A stretch of DNA of 32,000 nt. Origin: Ktedonobacterales bacterium (GTDB lineage: Bacteria > Chloroflexota > Ktedonobacteria > Ktedonobacterales > JADMIN01). Shown here in pieces: positions 1 through 18,987 of this stretch. The notes under the pieces are model-generated. The model saw only the letters and a list, made by a program, of their open reading frames with translations. It was not told the origin of the DNA and searched no databases. The stretch lies in the NCBI GenBank assembly GCA_030167145.1, contig CP126532.1, positions 3,360,001-3,392,000 on the forward strand. The letters run 5' to 3'. Positions within the stretch are counted from its first letter, which is position 1. The number at the start of each line of letters is the position of its first letter. The translations under genes and the position numbers were made by a program.

Positions 1-79
1 ATCTCGTGTATTTCTAGTGCTGACTGGTCGTTGCTAACGAGAAATGTGGTCATTAAGAAGCGCGAAGTATAACCCGCCG

Positions 80-3000
80 TCAATTGAAAGTATTGAACGA
101 ACCTTCAGTGGTCTCCTCGTCAAATACAAGTTCATCTTGACTGATGAATCTCATTAGAATGTCGTGGTCAAGAATTACCGTTTCCTGACTCAAAGGTCGG
201 CTCGGTATGCCGACACTTTCCTGATTTATTCCATGTACTAGCTGCTGAAATGCGGATGGAAAGTCGTCTCTGTCGCGGAAGTCCACCCATTGGAAAGAGC
301 CCAAAAAGCTACCTAGCAAAGCATCCATGGGACACCCGACGAGAATGCACGGAATGATTGGGATACCCTTCTGATGGTGACGCTCTAGCAGAATGACAAG
401 CTCTTTCTTCTGATAGGGTCCGAGGCCATGTTCGCCACAAAAGATGGCCGCGGATTTACACGATGCAAGCGCGCGCACAATTTGATCCATCCACTCCTGC
501 CCTGGGATGGAATCCCACATCTGAAAATATGGTCTAATACCGCGAAGTGTTAGCTCTTTGGCGTATTGTGACACTTCCTTTGCATCATGCGAGTTGTAAC
601 TTATGAATACGTCACGTTGGTCAACATCATCTTTACCTCTTAATGTCATCGCTGCAACAGCAAGGCTAAGGGTGTGGTCAGCACGCTTCTCCATTTCAAT
701 TAAGTCTTGGGATTGTTGGGATTGTAGGCCCGATTCTGCGCTTCCACTATGGTCGAATACTAACGGCGTTCCACAGTAAGAGCAAAAGGCTTGATTTCGA
801 CTGTCATTGATGAGATCTTGCATTTGGGATGGGTTGACTCGCTTCCCACATTCGGTGTTGGGGCAATGAACTATTCTGTGCATTTGTATGGTTCCACGAA
901 CCGCGTGTATGCGTAGATGATTTACGACAAATTCCTCAAATGTTTGCAGAGTCCTATTTGACGCCCCAACATGAAACAAAGTCAAATGGCCGGGCCCGAT
1001 CCCATCGTCTCGCAGGAGCAATCCGCATGTTCCACCAGCGGTAGCAGTGAAGGTAACTGCACCCTTATATACCTGTGGCTCTCGAAATAAACCGGAGTTC
1101 GCAATGCGTGTGGCAAGCGATGCATATATGAGCTGAATTCGTCCTCTAAACTCGATCACGGCGATCATATTGTCAGGTTCGTCGGGGTAGATGCTCGGTT
1201 TGCTTGCCTGCGAGGGGAACACAAGACATTCGTCGCCTTGTGCTGATCCAACGTTTTCGCGCATGGCCAATTCATGCCCAAGGAGGTCTCGCACCATTTC
1301 TACAATCAGCGTACGTTCTTGAGATTTGTCCTGTATGCGCTCATCAGCGGGAATAGGAAAGTCGCAAGCCTCCACTCTCTTGAGCGGGATACTTCCGAGC
1401 CCATCCTCTGCCTCTCTAACGGCATTGAGCAGCGCTGATGCATAGGTATCAAGTTTTTCTGGTCGAAGCAGGACATAGCTACCGAAGCTGAATCGTCTGA
1501 CCAATCCTGCGTTCTCGAGGTAGAATATGGCAGTCTCGAACTGGGTACGTGTGACTGTTATTGAGTCATCGCGGAAGCTCGAATGCCCGTAAGTCTCGTA
1601 CAGTTCTGACATAGTTGATAGGACGGACTTAGGGTTCCGGACACTTGCATTCATGACGAAGCGCATGACACGGATGAAAACATGAGACGAGTATATAGGT
1701 GTAAGCGAATCCCACTGCACAGAGCGAATGATCTTATCTTTGAGCGCATCTGTACCTAATGCGTACTTTGCACTGGTCTCAACATAGTCGTCGTAGCCAA
1801 GATCTCTGACAATCTCTCGAATGCGCGTGCGGTTCGTCCCAATGCCTGCTAAATCTGACTTACCAGCGACCAGGAACTTGGGCAAACGCCGGGTACCAGT
1901 AAGGCCCTCTTTCTGAGCGTCGCGAAGAGCGTGGTCCCAAAATAAGATTCTGTCGAGCGGATCTGCAGACTCACTATCGAACACGACTACCGCAACCGCG
2001 ACGTCGGATAGGTGAAGCAAGTGGATAATCCGAAAAGCCCGCTGCCCGGCCAAATCCCAAAGAAAGATGTTGCGCACTTCCGTAGCATCACCTGACTTCG
2101 CCTCAGGATTCTCCCAGAGCCGCCAAACATGCCGGTTGTGCGTGGGTTCCGTAGCATGCCACCCTTGCCCCGTAAGCCTGAGAGCAAGCCCTGATTTACC
2201 TACACTTTGTTCACCAACGAGAACAACTTTTGCATTTCGATACTTCACGTCATGTTGATCAGTGCCGCTTTGCTCGTTCACTTGCCGAGAGACATTCGCA
2301 ATACGCACAGTCACTGCCGATGTTGCAGCAGTTGCTAGATCATAGTCATAGGGACGGAAGGCCAAAACGATTGCTCTGGGCCGCAGTGTCGGAAACAAGG
2401 TATTCTGCTCGTCAGCGCTCCTGATCTTGATATCGCGACACTGTTCACCACTAATACTACTGAGCCGTGTCCACGATTCTACTCGCCAAAGCAGCACTGA
2501 ATTCATTGGATTATCTGATTGCGAGGCAGAGGCTGACTGTGAGGCTAAGACTGAGCCGTCGTAGGAAAATGACAGGGAACGAACTGGTCCGGTGTGCTGC
2601 TCAAGGCGACCAATCTCGTCGCCACCTACAGGGTCCCAAACTCGGATTGAGCGATCGTCCGACCCAGAAGTGAGGAAGCGGCTGTCAGGAGACCAGGCGA
2701 TGCAGTTGACTCTGCTTGCATGGCCCTCCCAAGCATGGATTTGTGTCCCGAGGACGTCATCCCAAAGCCGAACTGTGCCGTCGCTTGAACCGGATGCGAG
2801 AAAGCGTCCATCCGGAGACCACGCCACGGCGTTAACGGGTTGCGAATGTCCAATCAATATCTTGTCGGATACATCTCTATCGACATCCCATAAGTGCAAT
2901 GTGTGGTCCTCTCTGGCTAGTGCAACTAGCTTGCCATCGGGTGACCACGCTAGACAATTTACGCGGACAGGATTCTTTGAAGGGCAGACTTTAGTTGCGC

Positions 3001-3631
3001 CTGACACGTGATTCCAGGTGAAGACGGTATTCTCTCCGGCAGAAATGGCAATACGATCATCTCTTGGAGAACAAGCAACCGAGTGAATTTGCCTATCTTG
3101 CCGCTGTAGTGAGGCTCTCGTTGTGCCAGTTGCAAGATCAAACACTTGGATTTCGCCAGTATCCAAACCAAATACAAGTAGATTGCCATCTCGTGACCAT
3201 ACTAGCTTTAGAACAATCGGAGCCGGTGCGGATGCCCTAGGAGTAGCCGTCCGCGGCTGGACCGAGGGAGATGTGGGGCCCAGAGCAGCACGTATCGTCC
3301 GTATCGGAGTCACCTGATTGTTGGCATTTCTTTTGGGGCGTCTTGGAGCGTTGCGCCGCGCCGGGGGCATGTCATTCAAGTAAACGGGCGCGAGCAGTAT
3401 GACAAAGCAAACGAATGTAGCAGACCCCGCGACAAAGACAAGAGGGTTCTTGAAGAGATATGAGGCGATTGCAGTGAGCGCGAGCCAATCTAGCAGATCA
3501 AATCTATGCAATTGGGCGTGATTTGCTACCAAGCCTACGTCATTTGCACAGAGGACAGGGACATAGATCACACTTAGCAGTGCGGTGGAAACGCCTGTAG
3601 CTTTCAGCAACGCAACTAAGCGATTATACAC
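80..3631 (-). CDS. Membrane-anchored WD40 / Roc-type small GTPase / COR-like / zinc-ribbon / TIR multidomain protein (1183 aa)
   Basis: Uninterrupted 1183-codon ORF with a GTG start at 3631 and AAGG about 8 nt upstream. Residues 1-85 are hydrophobic (about 3 TM helices). Residues ~140-390 hold 6-7 WD40 units (GHSQPVNAVAWSPDGRFLASGSSDGTVRLWD; GHASRVNCIAWSPDSRFLTSGSDDRSIRVWD). Residues ~465-642 carry Ras/Roc GTPase motifs: G1 GEQSVGKS, G3 WDLAGQ, G4 AGKSD, G5 ETSAK. Residues ~643-920 look like COR-type winged helices. Residues 922-954 form a zinc ribbon (CPNTECGK...CSYCG). Residues ~1005-1125 are TIR-like (RDVFISYNSHD...YQKKELVILLE; nt ~257-619). GC is clearly lower than in the rest of the window. 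Confidence 0.85.
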   Translation of the reverse strand: MYNRLVALLKATGVSTALLSVIYVPVLCANDVGLVANHAQLHRFDLLDWLALTAIASYLFKNPLVFVAGSATFVCFVILLAPVYLNDMPPARRNAPRRPKRNANNQVTPIRTIRAALGPTSPSVQPRTATPRASAPAPIVLKLVWSRDGNLLVFGLDTGEIQVFDLATGTTRASLQRQDRQIHSVACSPRDDRIAISAGENTVFTWNHVSGATKVCPSKNPVRVNCLAWSPDGKLVALAREDHTLHLWDVDRDVSDKILIGHSQPVNAVAWSPDGRFLASGSSDGTVRLWDDVLGTQIHAWEGHASRVNCIAWSPDSRFLTSGSDDRSIRVWDPVGGDEIGRLEQHTGPVRSLSFSYDGSVLASQSASASQSDNPMNSVLLWRVESWTRLSSISGEQCRDIKIRSADEQNTLFPTLRPRAIVLAFRPYDYDLATAATSAVTVRIANVSRQVNEQSGTDQHDVKYRNAKVVLVGEQSVGKSGLALRLTGQGWHATEPTHNRHVWRLWENPEAKSGDATEVRNIFLWDLAGQRAFRIIHLLHLSDVAVAVVVFDSESADPLDRILFWDHALRDAQKEGLTGTRRLPKFLVAGKSDLAGIGTNRTRIREIVRDLGYDDYVETSAKYALGTDALKDKIIRSVQWDSLTPIYSSHVFIRVMRFVMNASVRNPKSVLSTMSELYETYGHSSFRDDSITVTRTQFETAIFYLENAGLVRRFSFGSYVLLRPEKLDTYASALLNAVREAEDGLGSIPLKRVEACDFPIPADERIQDKSQERTLIVEMVRDLLGHELAMRENVGSAQGDECLVFPSQASKPSIYPDEPDNMIAVIEFRGRIQLIYASLATRIANSGLFREPQVYKGAVTFTATAGGTCGLLLRDDGIGPGHLTLFHVGASNRTLQTFEEFVVNHLRIHAVRGTIQMHRIVHCPNTECGKRVNPSQMQDLINDSRNQAFCSYCGTPLVFDHSGSAESGLQSQQSQDLIEMEKRADHTLSLAVAAMTLRGKDDVDQRDVFISYNSHDAKEVSQYAKELTLRGIRPYFQMWDSIPGQEWMDQIVRALASCKSAAIFCGEHGLGPYQKKELVILLERHHQKGIPIIPCILVGCPMDALLGSFLGSFQWVDFRDRDDFPSAFQQLVHGINQESVGIPSRPLSQETVILDHDILMRFISQDELVFDEETTEGSFNTFN

Positions 3632-4057
3632 AGTGTAACCTTTTTGAAAGCTGACTCACTACACAGACAGAAACCTTTGATTTGCAATACTATTGTACAC
3701 AGGTCTAGTTGAGTTGGCAATAATTCCCAGTCACTTGCTGTGCGGTGTTACTCTCTTATCGGCTGTAAGAACACCGCCAGTTCGGCAGAGACGATGAACT
3801 CATGGAGGAGGAGATGAGATGACGAAGAATTTGTAGCGAGGTGGGATGGTTGAATCAATTAGGTAGCACCACGTGTGCCTGGGCAAGCAATGTACATTGC
3901 AAGGGCAGCAGATTGTGCCGAAGTCTTGTAGCGTGATTCAAGCGGATGATGTGATTATGCCTTAGATCAATTTGCACGTAGGGCTTCATAGCGATGCCCA
4001 CGCAAACGATCTTGGACAGTATCGCTGGCGTGGGCTAGGTTTGAGCGTGTGGTCGCG

Positions 4058-4282
4058 TTATGCTTGTGTCTGCTGATCTTCCTCGTCGTCCGCAAACTCG
4101 TCACTGTGGATGAGGGCTTTGACCTCTTCCCACTCGCTCATTGAGCGGAGCGTATGCACGCCGCTCTCCTTGAAGACAGCACGCACGGTGTAGCCAAGTG
4201 GACCGTTACGTACCCCAGACTCCCAATCGGGATAGTTCGCGTTGATGATGCGGGCGAGGTCGTATGCTTCGTTTTCGCGCAC
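4058..4282 (-). CDS. Hypothetical small acidic protein (74 aa), last gene of the leftward arm
   Basis: GTG start at 4282 with AGGAG 8 nt upstream. It begins 19 nt after the TAA stop of the upstream ORF. The composition looks protein-like (MRENEAYDLARIINANYPDWESG...). No family recognised. Confidence 0.55.
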   Translation of the reverse strand: MRENEAYDLARIINANYPDWESGVRNGPLGYTVRAVFKESGVHTLRSMSEWEEVKALIHSDEFADDEEDQQTQA

Positions 4283-4301: not shown

Positions 4302-5555
4302 TTAGGCTTCGGCTGCTGCTTCTTCCTGTTCTATTCCGCTGTGCTGTTCGGGCTGTGCCGCCAGGAGGTCTCTAAGGACGATGGCTTTGAGGTTGCTGGC
4401 GGTGGATTCGCTGATGCGTCGGCGGGTGGCGATGGCGAGTTGACGGGTGAGGTCACGCACGCTCATCTGTGGGTTGTCAAGGAGCAGGTCGCGGGCGATA
4501 CGCTCACGCTCGGTACGCAAGGTCTCGGCGTCGGCTTTGGTACGGCCAACAGAAGCCTTTGTTGTAGCTTTCGTGGTTGCTCGTGTAGCTGTGCGGGCAG
4601 GTGTGCGCACAGGTGACGTGCGAGCGGTGGGAAGGCGGAGTAACCCCCTGTTCGCACGCATGACCTCGGCGGCAGTGCTGGCCTGGGCTGGATGGGTCTG
4701 CACCCCCTGTGCGATTTCGGGGGTATTCGGCCCCTCAAAAGGCGGATAGGCTGGCTCGGTTTGTGGGTCGCGTTGTTGTGGGTTCGGTGGCGGTTCAGGC
4801 GCGGGTAAGGCGGGTTGTGCGAACATGTGTGCTGTGGGAGCCTGCGCTTGCGCTTGAATGGGAGCTTGAATGGGAGCTTGGGTGGGCGCCTGTATTGCGG
4901 CGTAGGCATGGCTGATGATGCGGCGGGTTTCGGGGTCGGGGACCAGTTCGACGAGTGCGCCGGTCATGTCGCGTCCGTCCTTTTCGGCTGCTCGCAGCAT
5001 CTTGCGGCGCTGCTTGCGCGCGATCTTGAAGACATCGGCGAGGGTCGCCCGCGCCTCGGCTTCGAGTTGCGCGGTGATGGGTTCGGCAAGCGGGGCGAGG
5101 AAGGCGGCGGCCATGAACGCGCCCGGGACGACGAGGGCGCGCACGACGTAGGCGAGCCAGCCAGGGAGGGCCAGCGCGGTGGTGGGTGGGGTCCAGGTGT
5201 CGTAGAGATAGTTGAGTTGGTTCCAGGCGGAGAAGGCGAGCAGGCCGGTGAGGATCGCCAGATTGACGCGCATGGCGCGGGTGGCGCGTTCGCGTTCGAT
5301 GCTGCCAGGAGTAGAGGCTTGCCCGTCCTGCCAGGCGACGCGCACACGACGCGCGCTGATGTAGCAGTGGGTCTCGACGGCGAAGGCGAGCGCCCAGGGT
5401 AGGATGCCGTTGAGCGTATCTTCGATGGCGGCGGGCAGGTGGCCTGCGCCGAAGTAGACGGCGACGGCGGTGATGCCTGCCAAGAGGTAGGCGATACGAA
5501 TAAGACCGGCGGCGGCTTCGTCGAGCCAGTCGAGGAAGCGGGTGAGGTTGCTCAC
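4302..5555 (-). CDS. Hypothetical multi-TM protein with a low-complexity linker and a C-terminal HTH-like segment (417 aa)
   Basis: GTG start at 5555 preceded by GGAGG (6-nt spacer). It overlaps the upstream stop (GTGA at 5552-5555). There are about four hydrophobic helices in the first 170 aa (LIRIAYLLAGITAVAVYFGAG, ILPWALAFAVETHCYI, VNLAILTGLLAFSAW, LVVPGAFMAAAFLAPL). A QAPTQAPIQAPIQAQAQAPT repeat is encoded by an imperfect 12-nt tandem repeat at ~4843-4896. The C-terminus is HTH-like (MSVRDLTRQLAIATRRRISESTASNLKAIV). The resemblance to DUF2637-type membrane proteins is from memory only. Confidence 0.7.
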   Translation of the reverse strand: MSNLTRFLDWLDEAAAGLIRIAYLLAGITAVAVYFGAGHLPAAIEDTLNGILPWALAFAVETHCYISARRVRVAWQDGQASTPGSIERERATRAMRVNLAILTGLLAFSAWNQLNYLYDTWTPPTTALALPGWLAYVVRALVVPGAFMAAAFLAPLAEPITAQLEAEARATLADVFKIARKQRRKMLRAAEKDGRDMTGALVELVPDPETRRIISHAYAAIQAPTQAPIQAPIQAQAQAPTAHMFAQPALPAPEPPPNPQQRDPQTEPAYPPFEGPNTPEIAQGVQTHPAQASTAAEVMRANRGLLRLPTARTSPVRTPARTATRATTKATTKASVGRTKADAETLRTERERIARDLLLDNPQMSVRDLTRQLAIATRRRISESTASNLKAIVLRDLLAAQPEQHSGIEQEEAAAEA

Positions 5556-7330: not shown

Positions 7331-7567
7331 CCGAGTTGGTGGGTTCAATGATAGCTGTTCTGTTATTCGTAATCCCGCGCGGCAACCCGAGTTCTTGGAT
7401 GATAATCGGGGCCGCGCGGTCTGTGTGGCAGGATGCCGGTATGGCTTATACGCCGCCCGCGTAGGGCCGCGCAGCGCGTACCCTCAACGCTGTGGTGGCG
7501 GTACGGCTTCAATTGCGGTTTTGTGGGTTCAATAGTGGCTGTTCTGTTAGGGGTGGGTGGTCGGGGG
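7331..7567 (+). repeat. Long direct repeat, left copy (partner at 13554-13835)
   Basis: 7331-7447 matches 13554-13670 at 115 of 117 positions by my reading. After a short divergent spacer, 7466-7567 is homologous to 13696-13835. The only gap is a 39-nt insertion present in the right copy alone. Confidence 0.8.
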
Positions 7568-7660
7568 ACGGCGGGGTGTGGTGGGGGGTGTGGGGCCGGT
7601 GGGTGTGGGGGTTGGGGTGGTGGGGCGTCCATGCCCCGGTGGTTGCGCTATCGTGTTGCG

Positions 7661-8766: not shown

Positions 8767-9285
8767 CTAGAAGGGGATGTCAGCGGACTCGGCGCGCTTG
8801 GCGGCTTGCTGCTCCATCCACGCGGGGTAGTCGTCTATGGCGTCGAGGAGGGCGCTGGTGAGGTCTTCGCCGGAGTAGTTGATGGGTATGGCTTCGTGGT
8901 AGCTGTTGGGGCCGTAGACGCGCCAGGGGCGATAGCCCTGGAAGTAGCGATAGGCCAGTATCCACGGTTCGCCATGCACGGTTATGGTGACGATAGCGCC
9001 GGTGTTGTCGTCGTCTTCGCGCTGCTCGTCGTAGTCCACTTCGGCGGCGAGGGCGTGCATCAGTTCGGCGCTGAAGTGGTCGCGTACCAGGGCGGCGAGG
9101 TTGTTCATCGCGTCTTCGCGCTCCTGGGCGATCTGGCGGGCGCGGTGGGCTTCGGCTTCGGCGCGCTCCTCGGCGCGGACGCTGCGGCGCGCGGCTAGCA
9201 GGTCATCGAGCGTGGGACTGTGCGTGGGCGCTCCGGTCGCCGTGGTGGTCGTGGTCGTCGTGTTGTTTGATACGTGGTTGCTCAT
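8767..9285 (-). CDS. Hypothetical protein (172 aa) ending in an SSB-like DIPF tip
   Basis: I chose ATG 9285 because it forms an ATGA overlap with the stop of the upstream 53-aa ORF. The ORF track's longer 9369 start would overlap that ORF. Features are an N-terminal Thr run (NNTTTTTTTATG), a charged helical segment, a globular C-terminal half, and a terminus ...AKRAESADIPF. Confidence 0.65.
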   Translation of the reverse strand: MSNHVSNNTTTTTTTATGAPTHSPTLDDLLAARRSVRAEERAEAEAHRARQIAQEREDAMNNLAALVRDHFSAELMHALAAEVDYDEQREDDDNTGAIVTITVHGEPWILAYRYFQGYRPWRVYGPNSYHEAIPINYSGEDLTSALLDAIDDYPAWMEQQAAKRAESADIPF

Positions 9286-9443
9286 GGGAGTTGGTTCGTG
9301 CCTTTCTTGCTTGCTCGTTTCCGGGCAATGGGTCGGACGATAAAAAGCCATATGTCTAGGGCGACGCATGCTAGTGCGAGCAATGCGAGGATGAGCCAGC
9401 CAATCGCGTCTGCGATGTCGAGGATGTTCAGTAGGGTGTGCAT
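9282..9443 (-). CDS. Small single-TM protein (53 aa)
   Basis: ATG at 9443 with GGAG 13 nt upstream. The sequence is MHTLLNILDIADAIGWLILALLALACVALDIWLFIVRPIARKRASKKGTNQLP, one hydrophobic helix plus a basic tail. It is translationally coupled to the next gene (ATGA). Confidence 0.45.
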   Translation of the reverse strand: MHTLLNILDIADAIGWLILALLALACVALDIWLFIVRPIARKRASKKGTNQLP

Positions 9444-9466
9444 GCTAGTCGGTTGGCTCCGTTTGT

Positions 9467-9506
9467 GGTGAATGGCTGGCCGGTCGGTCAACTCCGCGCG
9501 GCCAGC
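9467..9506. promoter_or_regulatory. Intercistronic GC-rich hairpin (family F)
   Basis: The stem is GCTGGCCG (9475-9482) / CGGCCAGC (9499-9506) with a 16-nt loop. The lead-in is the same as at 8685. It is followed by ggtacgcgctacaaggg, which recurs at ~10358-10375. Confidence 0.4.
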
Positions 9507-9569
9507 GGTGAACCTACGGGTACGATCAGGGGAAACCAAGGGTGAACCTACAGGTACGCGCTACAAGGG

Positions 9570-10265
9570 TTAAAAGGGGATGGCTTCACAGGCGACAGGG
9601 TCGGCGGTTTCGGCGGTTTCGGCAGTGGTTGCGGTATCCGGCGCAGTGGGGTCTTCGGGTACAAGCTGCTTGGCGAGGAAGGCCAGCAGGGCGCAGGCGA
9701 TGTGCTGCGGCACGCCGTCTATCGTCACTCGCACGGCGTCCGGGTAGGGGTAGGCGCCGTCGTGTCCTGGTTGCTGGTGAAACACAATGCGGGTGTGTGA
9801 ACGGGGATAGCTCGGATGGGGTACGCCATCGAGTACGGTTTCGCCGTTCAGGGTGGTATGGCTCGCCGTCAGTGGTCGGGCGGCGTCCAGCAGTTCTGCT
9901 AACATCTCGGCGCTACGCTGCTCGCGGGCGTCTTGCTCACGCTTGATGCGTGTGGCCTCGGCGAGCACCTGCCGGTACTCTGGCCAGATGCGGCGCTCGA
10001 TCTCGCGCACGATGACGGCGGCTCCGCGACTACTGGCAACAGTGATGGTGGGTATGGTCATCCCGTGGGGATGTGTCAGGCCATCGGGTAGCCATACGTC
10101 CACCTGTGTGCGTGTGCCGTTGTCGCTGATGCTGAGGCGCTGGCCGTCTGGCCCACGGAAGACGGTTTTCCATCCATAGTCTTTATCCTGTTGCCAGCCA
10201 GCGCCAAGCTGTGTAAGGAATAGGGCGGCGTTCTCGTCGCTCAGGGTTCCAGAAATGTAGCTCAT
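9570..10265 (-). CDS. Hypothetical protein (231 aa) with a disordered acidic tail ending in AIPF
   Basis: I chose ATG 10265 because GAGGAG lies 11 nt upstream. The track's 10346 start adds an unlikely extension. The body is globular, followed by the tail PEDPTAPDTATTAETAETADPVACEAIPF. Confidence 0.65.
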   Translation of the reverse strand: MSYISGTLSDENAALFLTQLGAGWQQDKDYGWKTVFRGPDGQRLSISDNGTRTQVDVWLPDGLTHPHGMTIPTITVASSRGAAVIVREIERRIWPEYRQVLAEATRIKREQDAREQRSAEMLAELLDAARPLTASHTTLNGETVLDGVPHPSYPRSHTRIVFHQQPGHDGAYPYPDAVRVTIDGVPQHIACALLAFLAKQLVPEDPTAPDTATTAETAETADPVACEAIPF

Positions 10266-10474
10266 GGCTAGGTATGCTCCTCGGTGGTCGGGTTGGTGTT
10301 CTTGGTGATTCGGGTTGGATAGGCTGGCTGTGGCTCCGGTTGCCAAAGCCAGCGGGTACGCGCTACAGGGACAATGGTTGGTGGGTGGTGTCTCCTCCGC
10401 TCCGGTGCGCGTCCGTTAGGACTCTCCTTGCGCTGATGTATCTGCTGTCCAGCCCCGGCGCGGTGGGGTAGCTA

Positions 10475-10756
10475 TCAGGCGCGCTTACGTCGGGTACGCT
10501 TATCGCGTGCGTAGGCGCTCAGGTCGGCAAGGACTGTGCTCCCGCGCATGGCTTCTCGAAGCTCATTCGCTTCGGCTTCGGGGTCAAAATCGGCGAAGAG
10601 CGGCGGCGGTGGGTCGTCGGGTAGGTCCGTCCAGAGGTACAGGTTCATGCGGCGGGCGGCTCCGCAACGCAAGCAGATTTCGTAGGCGTCGGCGCATGCG
10701 GGGTTCCATTGGTGTCCGGTGGCCTTGCAAGCGGCTTTCTTGCCTTTGATAGCCAT
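10475..10756 (-). CDS. Small zinc-ribbon protein (93 aa)
   Basis: ATG at 10756 preceded by ACGGAGCGTACCAACC. The sequence MAIKGKKAACKATGHQWNPACADAYEICLRCG has a C..C..CxxC pattern, and the C-terminus is basic (KRTRRKRA). The track's upstream extension overlaps the previous gene. Confidence 0.6.
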   Translation of the reverse strand: MAIKGKKAACKATGHQWNPACADAYEICLRCGAARRMNLYLWTDLPDDPPPPLFADFDPEAEANELREAMRGSTVLADLSAYARDKRTRRKRA

Positions 10757-10799
10757 GGTTGGTACGCTCCGTTCTCGGTGGTTCAGGTGGTCGGTTCGG

Positions 10800-12164
10800 T
10801 TACTTCCAGATGGAAAATGGGCGATTGTCGCGGGCAAGTGGTGCGGTTTCGCGGTCGTAGGCTTCGGGGTCGTACTCCGCGCGCCACTCCTCATCACTGA
10901 GGCGGCGGGCGTCATTGGCTCGGCCTTCCTCGCGGTACTTGCGTTGGCGCAGCTGCTCGCGGCGGATCATGCGGCGGGCGGCGGCGGTGCTATCTTTGCT
11001 GCCGCGTGTGAGGAAGTGGGGCCGGTAATCGGGGGCGCCGGTTCCGGCATTGGCGCGGGCCGTGTGGAGCAGGCCGCGCCGGGCGGCGCAGTCGTCGCAG
11101 ATATATTCGCGGTCAAGCTCGCCGGTGGCCGCCGCGCCGCAATGGCAGCGGGGGATGATAAGCTGCTCGCCGGTGGTGGGATTAGAGTAGGCGCGTTCGA
11201 GGCACGAGAGGCAGTCGCCAAGCTGGGCTAGCTCCTCGGCGCTGATGGGGCCGCCGCAGGAGGGGCACGCCAGCAGGCCAGCGGGGGCAACGGTGATGGG
11301 GGACTCGGCGGCGGGGGCTGGCTCGACGGCAACCGGCGCGGGCGCTGGGACGGGGTCGGGTAGCGCAGGACCGCGCGGAACCCCGGCATACGAGGCAGGA
11401 TGACTCGTCGCCGGATCGCCCGCAGGCGACTCCCCCGCGTCGCTCGGCTCGGCTGCGCCACCATTGGGGGATGGTGGCTCCGGGTTGGGGTCGTCGTCGT
11501 TGCTTTCGATGCCAATGGCGATGCCAAGCTCGGCGGCGCGCATCTCGGCGTGCGTCATCCAGCGGGCCATAGGCGCAACGGGGTGGGCGATTTCGTCGGC
11601 GGTTGGCTCGCCAGCGAAATAGGCGCAGCGAGCGCAATAGCCGCGCGGGTCAGACTTGACATAATCGGCATCCTTAAAATCGGCATTGCAACGCCAGTGA
11701 CGGCAATAGGCCGGTGCGCGCTCTTCGACGACCACGGCAACTGGCGCGGGGGACTCGACCACGGCGGCGGCAACGGGAGGAACCACGGGGGCGGGGGCGC
11801 TGGCCGAAGCCTGGGCTGGGGCTGCGAGAACCCCAGCGGCGACGAGAAGATGCAACCGCACAAACGCGCAATGGGAGCAGGTGCCCGCGCGGCGGCAACC
11901 GGGGCAGGGGCAGACGAGACGCGCGCCAGCCACACGCACCACATAGGCCACGCCGGCGGAAGAACCGGACGCCACCACCCATGCGCTATCTGCGATGTGC
12001 TCGCCGGGAAGCTCGGCAAGCAGGGCGAGGGGGCGAGACAGGGCACGAAGGCCAGCACGGGCGACGGCGGCGGCGAGGGCGGCGGGCAGGCCAGACGGCA
12101 CGAACCCGGCGGGCAGGGACGGGGCAACGGTGGCGGGGGCGGTGATCGAAGCGGCTGCGCTCAT
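10800..12164 (-). CDS. SWIM zinc-finger and multi-zinc-ribbon protein (454 aa), first gene of the leftward operon
   Basis: ATG at 12164 with GAGGAG 9 nt upstream. There is a SWIM-like CxC...CxH motif (LVCPCPGCRRAGTCSHCAFV, nt ~11868-11915). Further Cys clusters are CRHWRCN...CARCAYF, CPSCGG...CLSC and CHCG...CDDC, separated by Ala/Pro linkers. The ORF-track model (to 12962) runs across the AT-rich region and tandem repeats, so I rejected that part. Confidence 0.7.
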   Translation of the reverse strand: MSAAASITAPATVAPSLPAGFVPSGLPAALAAAVARAGLRALSRPLALLAELPGEHIADSAWVVASGSSAGVAYVVRVAGARLVCPCPGCRRAGTCSHCAFVRLHLLVAAGVLAAPAQASASAPAPVVPPVAAAVVESPAPVAVVVEERAPAYCRHWRCNADFKDADYVKSDPRGYCARCAYFAGEPTADEIAHPVAPMARWMTHAEMRAAELGIAIGIESNDDDPNPEPPSPNGGAAEPSDAGESPAGDPATSHPASYAGVPRGPALPDPVPAPAPVAVEPAPAAESPITVAPAGLLACPSCGGPISAEELAQLGDCLSCLERAYSNPTTGEQLIIPRCHCGAAATGELDREYICDDCAARRGLLHTARANAGTGAPDYRPHFLTRGSKDSTAAARRMIRREQLRQRKYREEGRANDARRLSDEEWRAEYDPEAYDRETAPLARDNRPFSIWK

Positions 12165-12270
12165 GGCTAGATTCTCCTCGGCGAACATTAGATGCAAATG
12201 ACTATTTGATGATTCTATTGTCTCATATTTGATACAAAATGACAACATATAAACGTCGCAAATGTCGAAT
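12165..12270 (-). promoter_or_regulatory. AT-rich island: candidate promoter/operator for the leftward operon, or a DNA-unwinding element
   Basis: This is the only strongly AT-rich stretch inside the element (gatgcaaatgactatttgatgattctattgtctcatatttgatacaaaatgacaacatataaacg). On the minus strand it reads TTGTCA (12245-12240), a 17-nt spacer, then GACAAT (12222-12217). The direct repeats AAATGAC and ATTTGAT each occur twice. Confidence 0.4.
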
Positions 12271-12311
12271 GCGCGCGACGGGGCTGGGCTGCGCCTGGAC
12301 TCCGCGCCAGC

Positions 12312-12619
12312 GGGGGAACGCGGGGGCGGTGGTCGAGGACACTCGCGCCAGCTCGCGCCAGCCGGAAAACGCGGGGACGCCGAGACGCCCCTCGACCAGG
12401 GGCAGGAAAGCCGGAAAACGCGGGGGCAACCGACGCCCGGAGCCGACGCCCGGAGCCGACGCCCGGAGCCGGGAAACGCGGGGCACGCCAGAGCGCCAAA
12501 CGACGCCGAAAACGCGGAGGACGCCGAAAACGCGGAGGACGCCGACCCGCCGAAAAGGCGAAAAATGCGCTCGGCGAGAGCGCCAACCCGACGCCCAACC
12601 GCCGACGAAAACGCGCGTG
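12312..12619. repeat. Iteron-like array beside the AT-rich island
   Basis: There are at least 7 copies of G(G/A)AAACGCGG(G/A)G: 12312-12326, 12361-12376, 12410-12426, 12468-12483, 12502-12519, 12520-12537 and 12604-12619. Also present are 13-nt cgacgcccggagc x3 (12431-12469), 18-nt gacgccgaaaacgcggag x2.5 (12502-12546), and ctcgaccagggg at ~12390 and ~12663. Confidence 0.6.
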
Positions 12620-12795
12620 CGCTCGTCGAGCCGACGCCCGCCGCCGACGCCCAAAGCGCGCGCTCGACCAGGGGCCGAACGACAAGCAGGCGGAGGCCAC
12701 CACCACCCCAAACACCCTCAGAGGGTCTGCTCTCGTCCGCGCGGAGGCGCGGGGTCAAAAAAATTGCTCCCTCTGGTGGGTGGCAACAAGCAGAC

Positions 12796-13027
12796 GTAGT
12801 CCCGTTAGGGAAGCGCCCACCACCCGCGCAGATGCTCGGACGGAAAAAGAGCAAAGTCCCGTTAGGGAAACGGTAGCCATATGCGGAGATGCTCGGACGG
12901 TAGGATGCCCTCTCTTCTCTCGAAGAGAGAACGGGGTCAAAAACACCGTGCTGCTCAATCACGCATCCGCCCTATTGAGGGAAAGAGCAAAGTCCCGTTA
13001 GGGAAACGGTAGCCATATGCGGAGATG
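12796..13027 (+). repeat. Three spaced copies of a ~46-nt unit
   Basis: A perfect 46-mer, aaagagcaaagtcccgttagggaaacggtagccatatgcggagatg, occurs at 12846-12891 and 12982-13027. A diverged copy lies at 12796-12843 (gtagtcccgttagggaagcg...gcagatgctcggacgg). Each contains the mini-hairpin CCGTTagggaAACGG. Confidence 0.7.
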
Positions 13028-13553
13028 GTGGGGTGAGGAGATGCCGTAGTCCCCAACTCGCTGTACGGTGATGCTTCGCTGTGGCCTGTTCGCTTGCGGC
13101 GCTGCGGCATGCTTCGCGCAGATGTTGACTATACACACAGATGGTCGGTTGTACAGCGCACCATGCTGGCTTCGATGCGCCGCCTCGCAATGGCCTGTAT
13201 GTGCTTCTCCCCCGTCATTAAAAAAGCGCCGCAGCGCCGCGGTGGGTGTGGCCCCTACGGAATGGCCTGTGACCTCACCCTCCACGGAGATCTTTCAATT
13301 ACCGCAATGTCGAAGGGGCCACCCCACCGCGTTCCCGGAGGGAAAATCTTTAACCTCGCCACGCTGGGATGCTCACTATGCACGCGGATGCTGAGTCGTA
13401 CAGCGTCACTTGCTCGTGCAGCGTCCTATGAATCGCCGACGCGCCCGATCCCGTCACGCGCGTACCCTCCAACGCGCTAGGCTACACTGCTCCGCTTTAG
13501 CCTGTGGCCGTCGGACGGAATGCGATGCCGCAATGGCCTGCGCCGTGTGCGCT

Positions 13554-14152: not shown

Positions 14153-16558
14153 ATGGGAAGAACCATGGCGGCACAGGCACGGACGGCGAAGACTCCGAAG
14201 ACGGTGGAGAAACCTTTGGAGAAGCGGGCGGCGGCGGCGGGCGAAGCAGTCAAGGCGGAGAGAACGTTGACGCGCGTGGCGTTGCCGTGCTCGATCAGGA
14301 TTGTGGACGAGGAGCGGCGCGAGGTGGAGATCTGCGCGACGAGTGAGGCGCTGGACTCGTATGGGACGGTCTTCGACTATGACGCGAGCAAAGACGCCTT
14401 CACGCGGTGGATCGGCAATGTGCGCGAGATGCACGAGAGGAAGGCTGTGGGCCAGCGGGTGGCGGTGCGCTACGATGATGACGCGCGGAAGGTGTACGCG
14501 CGGGTGCGCATCAGCGCGGGGGCGGAGGACACCTGGGAGAAGGTGAAGGACGGGACGCTGCGCGGGGCGAGCATCGGGGCAAGCAATGTGGAATGGCGCA
14601 CGCAGCGGCGCACGGTCGGCGGTGGCCTGGACGGCAGAGAGACGGATGTGCCGGTGGCGACGCGCTACGATCTGGTGGAACTGAGCTTGGTGGACAATCC
14701 GAGCAACCCGGATGCGGTGGGCGTGACGTTCATCCGCAATGGCGAGGTGGACGCTGAGCGGCTGGAATATCTGCAATCGCTGGTCGGAGACTACGAAGGC
14801 GACGCCGAAGATGAGATGGATGGTGGGCTAGCTGGGGAGAACCGTACTGCTGTATCAGGCCCGGCTCCATCGTCCGTCCCCACCGTTGCCGCCGCTGGCC
14901 TTGGCTCAGCGGTTGCTACGCCAGCGCCCTCTATCATCGAGCGCAACGGCTCGCTTTCGACGGTGGACCCGGCGGAGGCGATAGCGGCGGCGGCGCTGAA
15001 ACGCGGAATGTCTGGGCTACGCCAGGTAGCTGCTGGTGAGACTGCAACGCCAGAGAGCGGTCAACTCTCGGCCTATCATGCGAAGCTGGCACGGCTCGGT
15101 GCGCCGGGGTACGCCAATTACGCCAATGGCGACAGTGCTGAGCGCGTGGCAGCCGCTCCGGCTCCAGGCCAGGGGACATCTGGCTATGGCGTCCAGCAGG
15201 GCTACGACGTGGACGGCGATCATGAGTCGCCGGACGACTACATCAGCATTCAATCGGGACCGACGGCGGGCGCGGTGATGGCGCCCTCGCCTGAAGGCTC
15301 GGTGGCGCATATGGCGCACAGCCACCACCACACCGGCAGGTACGATGACCCAGCGGACCATACGGAGATCTCGGCGCACATGCACCAGGATGGGACGTCG
15401 CACACGCACGAGCATGTGATGGACCATCAGCACGGCGGGCATGAGGGGTTCCCGAACGGCCATACGCACCCGCACGTGCATGTGCCGGAGCACTCGCACG
15501 TCTACCGCTGCGCCGATGGGGAGCCGCTAGACCCACGGGTGCTTGCGCCGGAGGAGGCGCGGAAGCTCGCGTATGTCTCGGCGGCGGCATTCCGCAGCGT
15601 CGGCGGCATCGAGGGTCAGGCGCTCAGCGATGAGCAGTTTCGCGCGGCTGTCGTGCATCATCTGCGGCTGGCTCAGGGACGGCTCGATTCCCCGGCCAGC
15701 GAGCAAGCTGCTACGCATACCGCTGTTACCCAAGCTGATGCGGGTACGGCGGCGGTGGAAAGCCGTGCGCTTGGGCCATACTCACGCAATCCAGGCGGGC
15801 CAGCGGACGCGGGGACGCCGGATATGGTGGACGCAGCGGCGACGGAAACACTCACAGGCGAGGCTGCGCTCGGTGATGGCAACGGCGGTATGCCTGCCCT
15901 GGGTGATGTGGCGGAATGGCTCACACGGCGGGGGACGTGTCCGCTGTGCCAGGGGCAGGTGCGGGCGCTGGACCGCGATGGGAAAGCGATAGCGGGGGCT
16001 GATGCCAATGGTGCGGTCGCCGCTGAGAACGCGGCTGCTATGGCAGGACAAGGCACGCTGGATGTCTCGACGCCGCCGGATGGCTGGACCGGGCGCGGGC
16101 GTCAGCCTGACGCCCCTACGTCTTCCACTGGCACTCCCAAGGCTGCCTACTCTGCTGAGCCAACCATGTATCAGTCGGTGTTCGCGCAGACACTGACCAG
16201 TGAGGTGACGCGGGCGGTGGAGGCACAAACTCGCATCATGGCGGCGGCGCTGGGCGATCTGAAAGAGCGGCTGGCACGCATCGAGGCGCAACCGCAGGCG
16301 GGTGGTCCGGTGCTACGCGCGGCGGAGAAGTCCACGGCGCTGCATCCAAACGGGACTGCTGGCACACAGGGCGCGCCGGGCGCGGGTGAGCAGATACGGG
16401 CGCTGGAGGCGTTGGCGGGGCGGGTGACGGACCCACAGATACAGGTGGCGCTGGCGGCGGAGATGATCCGCTTGCAGCAGGAGCAGGCGGGTCTCCCTCC
16501 GGCGATGATGGTGATGCCCAGGGCTGGCCTCGACGTGACGCGGCGGCAATTCCCTTGA
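14153..16558 (+). CDS. Prohead (HK97-type, S78/U35-like) protease fused to a long His-rich and scaffold-like region (801 aa)
   Basis: ATG at 14153 follows AGGTGAGG. Residues ~45-190 resemble the HK97 prohead protease family (CATSEALDSYGTVFDYDA..., NVREMHERK, LRGASIGAS, YDLVELSLVDNPSNPDAVG). Residues 386-450 are His-rich. Residues ~670-801 are helical and scaffold-like (QTRIMAAALGDLKERLARIEAQ; EMIRLQQEQAG). Confidence 0.85.
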   Translation: MGRTMAAQARTAKTPKTVEKPLEKRAAAAGEAVKAERTLTRVALPCSIRIVDEERREVEICATSEALDSYGTVFDYDASKDAFTRWIGNVREMHERKAVGQRVAVRYDDDARKVYARVRISAGAEDTWEKVKDGTLRGASIGASNVEWRTQRRTVGGGLDGRETDVPVATRYDLVELSLVDNPSNPDAVGVTFIRNGEVDAERLEYLQSLVGDYEGDAEDEMDGGLAGENRTAVSGPAPSSVPTVAAAGLGSAVATPAPSIIERNGSLSTVDPAEAIAAAALKRGMSGLRQVAAGETATPESGQLSAYHAKLARLGAPGYANYANGDSAERVAAAPAPGQGTSGYGVQQGYDVDGDHESPDDYISIQSGPTAGAVMAPSPEGSVAHMAHSHHHTGRYDDPADHTEISAHMHQDGTSHTHEHVMDHQHGGHEGFPNGHTHPHVHVPEHSHVYRCADGEPLDPRVLAPEEARKLAYVSAAAFRSVGGIEGQALSDEQFRAAVVHHLRLAQGRLDSPASEQAATHTAVTQADAGTAAVESRALGPYSRNPGGPADAGTPDMVDAAATETLTGEAALGDGNGGMPALGDVAEWLTRRGTCPLCQGQVRALDRDGKAIAGADANGAVAAENAAAMAGQGTLDVSTPPDGWTGRGRQPDAPTSSTGTPKAAYSAEPTMYQSVFAQTLTSEVTRAVEAQTRIMAAALGDLKERLARIEAQPQAGGPVLRAAEKSTALHPNGTAGTQGAPGAGEQIRALEALAGRVTDPQIQVALAAEMIRLQQEQAGLPPAMMVMPRAGLDVTRRQFP
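16097..16117. repeat. 21-nt palindromic element (family D), copy inside the protease-scaffold CDS
   Basis: gggcgtcagcctgacgcccct is identical to 18600-18620. The stem is GGCGTCA/TGACGCC. It encodes GRQPDAP in both host genes. Confidence 0.6.
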
Positions 16559-16658
16559 TTCCCTTGATGACGGCTCAGCCATGAGCTGAGAAACACATAG
16601 ATGTGGCGATTTCTTCGTGCGGATGGATGTGGTGGTTTGGGGAGGGTAGGTAACGTAG

Positions 16659-18194
16659 GTGGCGGGAGCGATTGCGACAAGTCCATTTTTTGGTGGGGGC
16701 CAGGTGGGGCCGACGATTACGGATGAGACGGTGGCGCTGGTGCGCACGGCGATGGCGGAGACCTCGCGGGCGATTACGGCCGCTTCGGGGCTGATCGGCT
16801 ACGAACTGGAAGCGCCAGCCAAGGTCGTGGTGCCGGTGATTACGCCGCTGGTGAACATGCTGCCGAGGCGCAAGGGCAACGGCGTGGACGTGGTCCACTG
16901 GAAGGCGATCACATCGTTCGACACGGCACGCAACTGGGGCACGCTGGCGGATGGCGGCACACCTCAATCTGTCACCTATCAGGTGGCGCAGATGCAGAAC
17001 ACGCTGCAAACCATCTCGCTGATGAACTCGGTGAGCTTCCAGGCGCAGTGGCGTGGACGTTCCCTCGAAGCGGATGTGCGGGCGCGGCGGGTGGCCGAAC
17101 TGCTCTATCAGCTCAAGATCACCGAAGAGCGGTGGCTGCTGGGTGGCTCGGCGCTGCTGATGACGCCGCCGACCCCGGACCTGACCACGCCGGCGACTGG
17201 TGGGACGGTGGCGGCGGGGACGTATTGGGTGGCGGTGACGGCGAAGAACGCCCAGGGTGAGACCCAGGCCGGAACGACCTTCGCCAAGATCGTGACGACG
17301 GGCACGACTTCGACGGTGACGGTGATCATCTACACCGTGCCCAACGCCACCCAGTACAACGTCTACATCGGCTCCGGCGGCTCGCAGCCCGCGACCAGCG
17401 CCATGTGGCTGCAAGCGGGGATTTCGGGGGCGAATGCGGCGCAACCGGCGACGGGGGCGAGCGTGACGCTGGCCGACGGCGTGACGGTGATGCCGTCGGG
17501 CGAGGTGCAACCGGCGTACCTGACGGTGACGCTGACGGCTCCGCCCGCGACGAGTGGCACGGCGCTTTCCACGGTGGCTGCGAACACCGCCAAGACGTTC
17601 GTGGACGGCTCGAACAACATCCTGATGTGGGATGGGCTGATTGCGCAGGCGATCAACAACCAGGGGACGGGCAACGGCGCGACGCTGGGCGCACAGGTGG
17701 CGCAACCAGCGGCGGCGACGGGCCTGCTGGCCTTGTCGGACATTGATAACCTGCTGGCGGCGATGTACTTGCAGGCGGCGGGCGATCCCGACTACATCAT
17801 CATGAACCCGCTGGACAACGTGCGACTGACCAATCTGGTGGTCGGCGCGGGGCAACTGCGGTATGTGGTGCAGCAGCAGGGCGGGGACAACGGCGATCTC
17901 ACGGCGCAGTATCGCGTCACGCGGTATCTGAACAAGAGCACCGGCAAAGAGATGCCGATCATTCTGGATAGGTACTGTCCGCAGGGGACGATGGTCTTCC
18001 TGCCGATGAGCATTCCGTTCCCGGTGCCGGAAGTCTCCAACGCGGTGGAGATTGAGACGAACCAGGAATACTGGGGCGTAGACTTCGCGATCACCGACGC
18101 CAACTTCAAGTTCGCCGACTTCGTGGAAGAGACGGTGAAAGTCTACTTCCTCGGCGGCTTGGGCGTGCTGCGGGGCATCTACCCGTCGTTCTAA
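16659..18194 (+). CDS. Major capsid protein, HK97-fold-like, with an inserted FN3/Ig-like domain (511 aa)
   Basis: GTG start at 16659 with GGAGGG 12 nt upstream. It sits directly after the protease. Capsid-family style segments are QMQNTLQTISLMNSVSFQAQWRGRSL, ITEERWLLGG and PDYIIMNPLDNVRLTNL. Residues ~168-305 (nt ~17160-17573) look like an FN3/Ig insertion (AGTYWVAVTAKNAQGETQ...TVIIYTVPNATQYNVYIG). A strong terminator follows. Confidence 0.9.
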   Translation: MAGAIATSPFFGGGQVGPTITDETVALVRTAMAETSRAITAASGLIGYELEAPAKVVVPVITPLVNMLPRRKGNGVDVVHWKAITSFDTARNWGTLADGGTPQSVTYQVAQMQNTLQTISLMNSVSFQAQWRGRSLEADVRARRVAELLYQLKITEERWLLGGSALLMTPPTPDLTTPATGGTVAAGTYWVAVTAKNAQGETQAGTTFAKIVTTGTTSTVTVIIYTVPNATQYNVYIGSGGSQPATSAMWLQAGISGANAAQPATGASVTLADGVTVMPSGEVQPAYLTVTLTAPPATSGTALSTVAANTAKTFVDGSNNILMWDGLIAQAINNQGTGNGATLGAQVAQPAAATGLLALSDIDNLLAAMYLQAAGDPDYIIMNPLDNVRLTNLVVGAGQLRYVVQQQGGDNGDLTAQYRVTRYLNKSTGKEMPIILDRYCPQGTMVFLPMSIPFPVPEVSNAVEIETNQEYWGVDFAITDANFKFADFVEETVKVYFLGGLGVLRGIYPSF

Positions 18195-18243
18195 GCGTAT
18201 TGTAAGCCCCTGCGCTACGGCGCGGGGCGTCTCCCAACTCACA

Positions 18244-18280
18244 GGGCTGGTCGGTCACCCCACCGGCCAGCCCGCTTTTT
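18244..18280 (+). terminator. Rho-independent terminator after the capsid gene
   Basis: GGGCTGGTCGGT-cacccc-ACCGGCCAGCCC forms a 12-bp stem with one G-U pair, followed by gcTTTTT. The stem sequence is related to the family F hairpins at 8693 and 9475. Confidence 0.75.
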
Positions 18281-18290
18281 CGGCTCAGCC

Positions 18291-18701: not shown

Positions 18702-18714
18702 GCGGAGCTTGCAA

Positions 18715-18987
18715 ATGTTCAGGCAGGCGGGGATAGATACGGCGGTGCTGGAAGAACTGCGGGCGATCCGCGCGGAGATCCACGAGCTGGCGGAGAAGGT
18801 GGGGCAGGCGGCGACGCGGGATGATCTGGCGGACTACGTGACACGCGAGGCGTTTGACGCGCATGTGAACCAGCACAAAGAGCGGGTGGCGGACTGGCGG
18901 TTCTGGCTGCCGTATGCGCTGACCGCGTTGATGTTTGTGCTGTATGTGATGCAAGACCTGGGTGTGCGGCTCGTAGCAGGCCGATAG
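18715..18987 (+). CDS. Hypothetical coiled-coil protein with a C-terminal TM anchor (90 aa)
   Basis: I preferred ATG 18715 (GGAG 7 nt upstream, just after the 18701 stop) over the track start at 18670. The sequence is MFRQAGIDTAVLEELRAIRAEIHELAEKVG...WRFWLPYALTALMFVLYVM. Confidence 0.5.
   Translation: MFRQAGIDTAVLEELRAIRAEIHELAEKVGQAATRDDLADYVTREAFDAHVNQHKERVADWRFWLPYALTALMFVLYVMQDLGVRLVAGR

Follow-up and report, generated by a model that had tools for sequence, protein, structure and literature searches.

Prokaryotic counter-invader systems centred on an AP-GTPase (equivalent to Roc, Ras-of-complex) with a COR domain were predicted in 2021 by Kaur, Iyer, Burroughs and Aravind (eLife 10:e70394; PMC8195603), who described N-terminal leucine-rich repeats (LRRs) and at least 24 alternative C-terminal domains, TIR among them. 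Their source data (Fig. 6) hold about 580 'COR+TIR' matches, or about 290 proteins if each is written twice, with Npun_F6039 as an example of the order LRR-Roc-COR-TIR (PMC8195603). An architecture 'BetaPropeller+AP-GTPase+TIR' is also catalogued there (for example HFS11412.1 from Anabaena, 1179 aa), and these propeller versions are filed under AP-GTPases without detected LRRs, with no COR given (PMC8195603). Here, we analysed a 32,000-nucleotide stretch of a Ktedonobacterales genome (GenBank assembly GCA_030167145.1, contig CP126532.1, positions 3,360,001 to 3,392,000), referred to as the window, which encodes near its left end a single 1183-residue protein combining a WD40 propeller, a Roc GTPase, a COR domain, a zinc ribbon and a TIR domain. 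The gene and its 10-kb flanks were taken from the Joint Genome Institute (JGI) locus L001. We consider this protein to be probably a single-polypeptide ROCO-type conflict receptor (immune or abortive-infection), carried as accessory cargo by a temperate phage of a Ktedonobacterales host.

Both the concept and the domain order have been on record as predictions since the work of Kaur et al., and the conceptual picture is unchanged by our analysis. The present protein shares with those systems an N-terminal repeat sensor, a Roc switch and a variable C-terminal effector that may be TIR, the single-gene format, the occurrence of several copies per genome, a predicted immune role and, for the propeller entries, the same order of propeller, GTPase and TIR. 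In contrast to their main class, which has LRRs, it carries WD40 repeats; and whereas neither COR nor zinc ribbon is listed for their propeller entries, a COR is supported here by structure and a four-cysteine ribbon by conservation. The present copy also adds a putative membrane anchor, shares no more than 41-44% identity with any other member found and is located in a prophage. Our additions are accordingly the assignment of COR from structure, a zinc ribbon whose cysteines never vary, the alternative effectors of this clade and an estimate of family size, together with a divergent, possibly membrane-anchored, prophage-carried member of the family.

The gene forms one open reading frame (ORF) on the minus strand, beginning with a GTG codon (GTG1), just as the initial annotation of this DNA had described. 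Residues 441-1183 were aligned with 113 homologues (114 sequences in all) before structure prediction with AlphaFold2 (AF2), and the resulting model reached a mean predicted local distance difference test score (pLDDT) of 87.1 and a predicted template modelling score (pTM) of 0.87; the full-length model reached 81.6 and 0.81, respectively. The following features are given in window coordinates.

80-3631, minus strand: whole ORF of the ROCO-type protein, (transmembrane)-WD40-Roc-COR-zinc ribbon-TIR, 1183 aa, GTG1 to stop
3371-3631, minus strand: putative N-terminal membrane anchor, residues 1-87, two to three hydrophobic helices followed by the basic stretch RRNAPRRPKR
2291-3313, minus strand: seven-bladed WD40 beta-propeller, residues 107-447, putative sensor (Pfam, sequence matches in the PDB, AF2)
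1712-2248, minus strand: Roc GTPase, residues 462-640 (Pfam, conserved G motifs)
896-1699, minus strand: COR domain, residues 645-912, a helical COR-A then an alpha/beta COR-B (Foldseek on the AF2 model)
758-886, minus strand: four-cysteine zinc ribbon, residues 916-958, between COR-B and the TIR arm (cysteine conservation, AF2)
626-709, minus strand: long single helix joining the zinc ribbon to TIR, residues 975-1002 (AF2, high pLDDT)
224-616, minus strand: TIR domain, residues 1006-1136, putative NADase effector, with E1077 in the motif GPYQKKE (Pfam TIR_2)
83-217, minus strand: C-terminal tail, residues 1139-1183, predicted disordered (AF2 pLDDT 27-37)
3692-3720 (L001 9447-9475), minus strand: TTGCCA-17-TACAAT, the best promoter-like site of the region, matching at 10 of 12 positions and lying some 60 nt upstream of GTG1

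In the switch region, Pfam Roc (PF08477) matches residues 468-572 with E 1.3e-13 and 51.6 bits, the cut-off being 27, and Pfam Ras matches residues 468-638 (E 1.4e-12). All G motifs that the initial annotation had read are in place, namely G1 (GEQSVGKS, 473-480, with K479), G3 (WDLAGQ, 525-530), G4 (AGKSD, 589-593) and G5 (ETSAK, 618-622), with T494 and T497 in switch I. Among the 114 aligned sequences, K479, T494, W525-Q530, D593, T619 and S620 are invariant or nearly so.

The COR-like region that had been claimed downstream of the GTPase found no support in Pfam, as neither COR-A nor COR-B matched residues 640-1000 scanned alone, even at E<=1. It was borne out instead by structure. When the model of residues 441-1183 was compared with the PDB using Foldseek, the best match was LRRK1 (8e05; E 9e-19, 589 columns), and the matches also included LRRK2 (8fo9; E 1.4e-17), the RocCOR tandem of C. 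tepidum (3dpu_A; E 2e-16, 533 columns, TM-score 0.61 normalised on the target) and M. barkeri Roco2 RocCOR-deltaC (4wnr; E 1e-13, 368 columns). Plain small GTPases of the Ras/Rho type ranked lower and were aligned over only about 175-190 columns. Because the ROCO matches run far beyond the GTPase, residues ~645-912 are best modelled as a COR fold, which by this prediction makes the protein a true member of the ROCO class, with COR directly C-terminal to Roc.

The tandem fold is thus shared with CtRoco (3dpu), Roco2 (4wnr) and LRRK1/LRRK2 (Foldseek E 9e-19 to 1e-13), as are the P-loop, the switch I Thr, the DxxGQ motif and the G4 Asp. Sequence identity to these proteins is only 12-17%, the Pfam COR models find no match, and the arrangement around the tandem differs: WD40 rather than LRR precedes Roc here, whereas LRRK2 carries its WD40 at the C-terminus, and COR-B is followed by a zinc ribbon and TIR where those proteins have a kinase or nothing. 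The ribbon itself, noted earlier as a CxxC...CxxC pattern, proved to be fixed in the family. C923, C928, C950 and C953 are invariant in 114/114 sequences, and also in 82/82 of another set; residues 916-958 are modelled as small beta hairpins forming a ribbon, and zinc-ribbon families in Pfam gave sub-threshold matches only.

The C-terminal TIR domain of the initial annotation is also supported. Pfam TIR_2 matches residues 1008-1132 over 122/122 profile positions (E 1e-19 in the whole protein, 6e-21 in the segment) and scores 71-75 bits, well above its cut-off of 28, and AF2 models an alpha/beta domain with high pLDDT at 1006-1136. E1077 is kept in 111/114 family sequences. By sequence, the TIR segment yielded a single weak match in the PDB, the plant AtTIR (3jrn; E 0.075), and in that phmmer alignment E1077 falls on the Glu of the 'W-C-L-D-E-L' motif, which we take to be the catalytic residue in plant TIRs; four residues earlier, the query has Tyr (Y1073) in place of a usually conserved Trp. 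Fold and conserved catalytic-type Glu together mark a putative TIR of the enzymatic (NADase) type. The active sites of TIR NADases form through self-association.

At the other end of the protein, Pfam WD40 and beta-propeller families cover residues ~140-410 (E 1e-44 to 2e-42), and the sequence matches of this region in the PDB are WD40 proteins (for example 2ymu at 4e-102). Six to seven blades had been proposed; the full-length model has seven, made of 28 strands between residues 140 and 447, with strand 107-114 closing the last blade. Among homologues, mean identity falls to 0.37 in the WD40 region, compared with 0.65 in Roc, 0.60-0.62 in COR and 0.59 in TIR. The propeller, much more variable than Roc-COR-TIR, is therefore a putative sensor. 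Overall, profile searches support WD40, Roc and TIR_2, and AF2 with Foldseek supports COR, so that the TIR and Roc assignments on which the initial annotation depended both hold.

The propeller also bears on the start of translation. The JGI record of the identical protein has 1028 aa, with the start called at L156 (window 3166). In the AF2 model, this start would cut off closing strand 107-114 and part of blade 1, and for this reason we regard it as probably mis-called; on the same model, the true start must lie at or before V107. Candidates are GTG1, TTG8, GTG21, TTG34, TTG41, TTG85, ATG88 and GTG107. Several observations favour a start near GTG1: the first 135 codons contain no stop in the ORF frame, compared with 9 and 6 in the other two frames, the codon-position GC of residues 1-87 (0.59/0.36/0.52) agrees with that of the remainder of the gene, and AAAGG lies about 9 nt upstream of GTG1. 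Promoter and terminator scans of the region gave site counts not above shuffled expectation, and the promoter-like site listed above is thus weak evidence.

A membrane anchor at the N-terminus is fairly likely but hinges on translation beginning at or near GTG1. About three transmembrane helices had been proposed, and three hydrophobic segments are indeed seen (residues 5-27, 46-60 and 63-86), with Kyte-Doolittle windows >=1.6 at 5-23 and 59-77; the helices that AF2 places at 2-12, 16-36, 46-59 and 63-86 are of low confidence (pLDDT 36-64), and the anchor would be real only with the early start. Hydrophobic helices before the propeller were called independently in 9/119 homologues. The N-terminal hydrophobic regions of these homologues show no significant sequence similarity to that of the query, nor do they resemble one another, and for this reason homology cannot confirm the anchor.

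We next turned to the extent and modularity of the family. A word-indexed search with residues 441-1183 returned at least 400 matches, the best 120 of which align with about 87-96% of the query and are 36-41% identical to it; most of the matches among those listed are about 1000 aa long and show WD40, Roc and TIR_2. When 1.84 billion cluster representatives were searched exhaustively with the COR and zinc-ribbon region (residues 640-1000), 1049 clusters (50% identity) matched at E<=1e-3, of which 667 reached <=1e-10 and 229 reached <=1e-30; none of these matches, partial ones included, is more than about 45% identical to the query. In a scan of one genome per species, at least 523 loci were found in Ktedonobacteria, other Chloroflexota, Nostocales, Actinomycetota, Acidobacteriota, Planctomycetota, Myxococcota and others. 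The actinomycetotal members include Lentzea, Actinoplanes and Streptosporangiaceae, and one Lentzea genome has two copies. The family is thus patchy across filamentous or complex bacteria.

Using family-specific hidden Markov models, we classified 144 family representatives. Roc, COR, zinc ribbon and TIR occur together in 114 of them, in agreement with the domain order proposed earlier, while about 21 have another C-terminus after the same Roc-COR-zinc ribbon. Those that were scanned with Pfam include a class III nucleotide cyclase (E 1e-16), a PNP_UDP_1 nucleosidase (E 2e-11) and an nSTAND2/AAA ATPase (E 7e-20). In some relatives the N-terminal WD40 is replaced by a caspase (PF00656), AAA_16, other domains or nothing. 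The family therefore has the architecture reported for the AP-GTPase counter-invader systems, that is, variable repeats (WD40 at 0.37), an AP-GTPase with COR and a C-terminal effector that varies. Conflict systems are expected to show just this pattern, in which the switch stays constant while the sensor varies and the enzymatic output can be exchanged. Eight Lentzea members (L050, L052, L055, L056, L060, L066, L068 and L072) measure 1626-1762 aa by simple ORF calling, about 650 aa more at the N-terminus than the usual 1000-aa form.

Several experimentally described systems share parts of this plan. The protease in the work of Johnson et al. on a bacterial gasdermin of Runella (bioRxiv 10.1101/2021.06.07.447441) is a Roc-COR-CHAT protein, likewise a bacterial Roc-COR fused to a C-terminal conflict-type effector in a cell-death system; there the effector is a CHAT protease and the system includes a separate gasdermin gene, whereas the present protein ends in TIR. 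According to two further reports (PMC12847820, 10.64898/2026.05.01.722283), single-protein TIR or TIR-like NADases cause abortive infection via NAD+ hydrolysis; a phage portal is reported as the activator of Swarozyc, and SpbK is characterised with the SPbeta protein YonE. SpbK and Swarozyc share with the present protein a TIR-type domain with a catalytic-type Glu but have neither a GTPase switch nor a propeller, and the TIR described here matches the known defence TIR subfamilies only weakly. The phage SPbeta, against which SpbK protects, is temperate.

Avs, bNACHT and TIR-STAND fusions resemble the protein in joining a repeat sensor, an NTP-dependent switch or oligomeriser and a death effector; the NTPase, however, is a Ras-like GTPase with COR here and a STAND ATPase in Avs and bNACHT. 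No NACHT, NB-ARC or STAND family appears among the best 25 of 55 Pfam matches, nor in the Roc, COR-zinc ribbon and TIR segments, and PADLOC returned no match to an Avs or NLR model. As the NTPase class is Ras-like, filing the protein under STAND/Avs was rejected; it would be STAND-like in its working without being a STAND member.

The setting of the gene is that of foreign cargo in a prophage, as laid out by the following features of the window.

1-4070, no strand: low-GC tract, GC 0.506, about 4.1 kb, reaching about 110 bp beyond the left edge of the window
14153-24097, plus strand: prophage head and packaging module (PHROG matches)
14153-16558, plus strand: phage protease/major-head fusion, 801 aa (PHROG E 3e-32)
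19007-19933, plus strand: head-tail adaptor (PHROG E 3e-4)
20529-22076, plus strand: portal (PHROG E 1e-40)
22754-24097, plus strand: large terminase (PHROG E 1e-42)

Besides the gene, the tract (L001 ~9100-13200) takes in about 430 bp on the upstream side and about 110 bp on the downstream side. Its GC of 0.506, and that of the ORF (0.508), contrast with 0.642 in the rest of the window and 0.654 in the DNA beyond the left edge, and in composition profiles with 100-bp windows its edges are sharp, about 100-200 bp wide. The earlier observation that GC drops well below that of the neighbouring DNA, and its reading as horizontal acquisition, both agree with this sharp insert of 51% GC and foreign composition. 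At the tract borders we found no tRNA, no Rfam family and no flanking direct repeats.

To the left of the window lies a 1174-aa Laminin_G_3 protein that matches PHROG virion structural families. The gene sits between this virion protein and the early and head genes, at the junction of two convergently transcribed blocks; rather than lying directly beside a phage-like element, as the initial annotation had it, it is inside the prophage, with phage genes on both sides. The large terminase of the prophage is at most 32.5% identical to that of any deposited phage, and 240 relatives of its portal at 65-80% identity come nearly all from Ktedonobacterales metagenome bins. One portal relative, 76% identical, is on a Ktedonobacterales contig, by which the lineage of the host is identified, and a second related prophage in the same genome is suggested.

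The neighbouring 417-aa ORF (window 4302-5555, minus strand) has hydrophobic N-terminal segments and a low-complexity middle rich in Pro, Ala, Thr and Gln (APTQAPIQAPIQAQAQAP); it gave no match in Pfam, PHROG or IMG/VR. Homologues of this protein (41-78% identity) occur in three other Ktedonobacterales mobile elements, near an integrase, a Prim-Pol/D5 primase or RecT, and one of the three also has a convergent Laminin_G_3/Sipho_Gp37 gene. In none of the three does a ROCO gene stand next to the 417-aa homologue, which argues that the ROCO gene is accessory cargo (a moron) of the present prophage. BFVD holds no viral Roc-COR-TIR counterpart, only giant-virus Ras GTPases.

Around the homologues, we examined three annotated loci, which have mostly housekeeping neighbours and no conserved partner; an integrase lies near one of them, and at one a VWA gene occurs together with a small TIR gene. 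From our own ORF calls, we then classified 132 immediate neighbours, two per side, at 33 loci. The commonest families were TIR_2 (9), NACHT (3) and NCH2 (3), followed by nSTAND3, VWA and protein kinase (2 each), with most others single and housekeeping. At the homologue loci examined, we saw no operon partner that the family retains throughout.

Taken together, these results suggest the following course of events for the conflict receptor. The variable seven-bladed propeller would recognise some trigger, in all likelihood a protein from an invader such as a superinfecting phage, and binding would alter the nucleotide state, conformation and oligomeric state of Roc-COR. In solved bacterial Roco proteins, Roc-COR undergoes a large rearrangement driven by GTP, to which a switch between dimer and monomer is coupled. 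The zinc ribbon, together with the long helix 975-1002, would relay the change so that TIR domains assemble into an NAD+-cleaving form, and loss of NAD+, or a nucleotide signal made by TIR, would halt the infected cell. With a start at GTG1, the anchor of two to three helices would tether the protein to the membrane. The trigger, the direction of GTP control, the NADase activity and the protective phenotype are what we infer in this scheme. The sensor-switch-effector module of the initial annotation, with Roc in the place of a STAND ATPase, is thereby supported in its design, given the conserved motifs, the variable WD40, the swapped effectors, the patchy spread and the prophage cargo, while its defence role and NADase output keep the conditional standing they had.

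A number of points weigh against a defence role or against parts of this scheme. PADLOC-DB v2 and NCBIfam contain no system-level match; the PADLOC matches are HEAT-ARM_XIII via the WD40 region (E 3e-15) and weak TIR matches (E >= 1e-3) only. Full-text searches of the literature turned up no experiment in which a ROCO-TIR protein was tested for phage defence. TIR domains may also serve as scaffolds or signal generators. As to the defence islands for which the initial annotation proposed a survey of homologues, TIR_2, NACHT and nSTAND proteins are the commonest neighbours, but many homologues lie among housekeeping genes and not in recognisable defence islands. Since some of the TIR neighbours belong to the ROCO-TIR family itself, as split or duplicated pieces, and the counts are raw and without background control, the neighbour enrichment gives mild support only. 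As to the anchor, most homologues lack an N-terminal hydrophobic segment, and its presence here hinges on a GTG start that is unverified and on a model of low confidence, JGI having called a shorter protein. Finally, the query is an outlier (identity to the family of 0.45 in Roc, 0.39 in COR, 0.35 in TIR and 0.31 in WD40, compared with about 60% for the other members outside WD40) and departs at nearly invariant sites, where Ser of switch I is replaced by P496, Arg of G4 by K591, Pro by R531 and Trp by Y1073. Owing to these departures and the outlier status, its activity may be altered or weakened.

The housekeeping surroundings of many loci would fit a non-immune protein, that is, a signalling or regulated-cell-death ROCO protein of filamentous 'multicellular' bacteria, whose WD40 would bind an endogenous partner (in developmental control, kin discrimination or stress-induced death, for example) and whose prophage location would be incidental. 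The concentration of the family in Ktedonobacteria, Nostocales, actinomycetes and myxobacteria speaks for such a role, as do the signalling functions of eukaryotic ROCO proteins and the conservation of Roc-COR-TIR at about 60% across phyla, as for a constrained core machine. We nevertheless regard it as unlikely, as the gene is a foreign low-GC insert in a prophage whose relatives do without it, conflict genes typically show swapped effectors, N-terminal sensors that vary, paralogues and a patchy spread, and the commonest neighbours are TIR, NACHT and nSTAND proteins.

The nucleotide cyclase that stands in for TIR in some relatives is a signal generator, and thereby favours a variant in which the protein does serve defence, with TIR making a nucleotide signal (a cyclic ADP-ribose isomer or similar) for a separate effector encoded elsewhere. 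Thoeris-type bacterial TIRs act through a nucleotide signal, and the Tyr in place of Trp before the Glu could change product chemistry. We consider this variant rather improbable, because the loci examined reveal no partner gene that the family has in common; in addition, a degradative enzyme, the PNP nucleosidase, also replaces TIR, and single-protein TIR NADases are described in the reports above as working by depletion.

That the present copy is decaying or functionally altered, a recent cargo under relaxed selection with a changed GTPase or TIR, is very improbable: its S496P, R591K, P531R and W1073Y changes are unique, its branch is long and its disordered C-terminal tail is missing from most homologues (occupancy 0.17), but the frame is intact over 1183 codons of ~51% GC DNA, K479, T494, DxxGQ, D593, TSAK, the four Cys and E1077 are all retained and AF2 is confident for all domains. 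A pseudogene was rated unlikely, given the intact frame and the retained catalytic residues.

Further observations concern the surroundings of the gene and of its relatives. About 7.7 kb past the 3' end of the ROCO gene, outside the window, lies a gene for a protein of more than 867 aa in which DUF4062 precedes TPR repeats (L001:20766-23087, plus strand in locus orientation). In a 2026 preprint (10.64898/2026.05.01.722283), DUF4062 is presented as a TIR-like NADase that forms the 'Swarozyc' anti-phage system, and on that basis two candidate immune genes of the NADase type may lie within about 8 kb. Along the direction of transcription, the head module of the prophage runs protease/major-head, adaptor, portal, terminase, the reverse of the usual order terminase-portal-protease-capsid. 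Beside the terminase, a 714-aa ORF (window 25138-27282, minus strand) shows a tandem periodicity of 15/30/60 nt, corresponding to 5-residue, pentapeptide-repeat-like units, and matches many PHROG families of unknown function (E 1e-27 to 5e-54). Few convincing ORFs were seen at 5.6-7.6 kb of the window, and G-rich imperfect tandem repeats with periods of 23 and 28 occupy 7552-7624.

Among the homologue loci of Calothrix, Nostoc and Coleofasciculaceae, the ROCO-TIR gene has, within about 25-100 bp behind it, a co-directional ORF of 169 aa that may be a lineage-specific partner. It was found at the following positions.

L019:12108-12617: 169-aa ORF
L023:12160-12669: 169-aa ORF
L033:12157-12666: 169-aa ORF
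L034:12045-12554: 169-aa ORF
L053:12109-12618: 169-aa ORF

On plasmid4 of Calothrix sp. NIES-4101 (L016, 13078-15356), two further TIR-bearing ORFs come after the family member, one of 281 aa that has the family TIR twice in tandem and one of 457 aa that also has it, forming a local TIR array.

Beyond the single locus, we tentatively suggest that the family as a whole could be an anti-phage or abortive-infection system in which the Ras-like Roc-COR, instead of a STAND ATPase, gates a TIR NADase, a class of bacterial immune receptor homologous to the LRRK/DAPK branch of eukaryotic ROCO proteins, and that the present copy could be membrane-tethered and deployed by a prophage against superinfecting phages. 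The copy described here offers a clean test case: one gene and its own upstream region make up a self-contained cassette, which is foreign in composition and set in a prophage. If the suggestion is true, its easily assayed output, the loss of NAD+, would allow direct tests of how GTP state is coupled to output, and the protein would provide a simple system for the control of an output domain by GTP state. A bacterial NLR-like immune receptor would then operate on the same Roc-COR switch as human LRRK2, in which the physiological control of that switch is still debated. A GTPase-switched class would be added to the phage-defence repertoire, and the Roc-COR switch would have an ancestral immune function.

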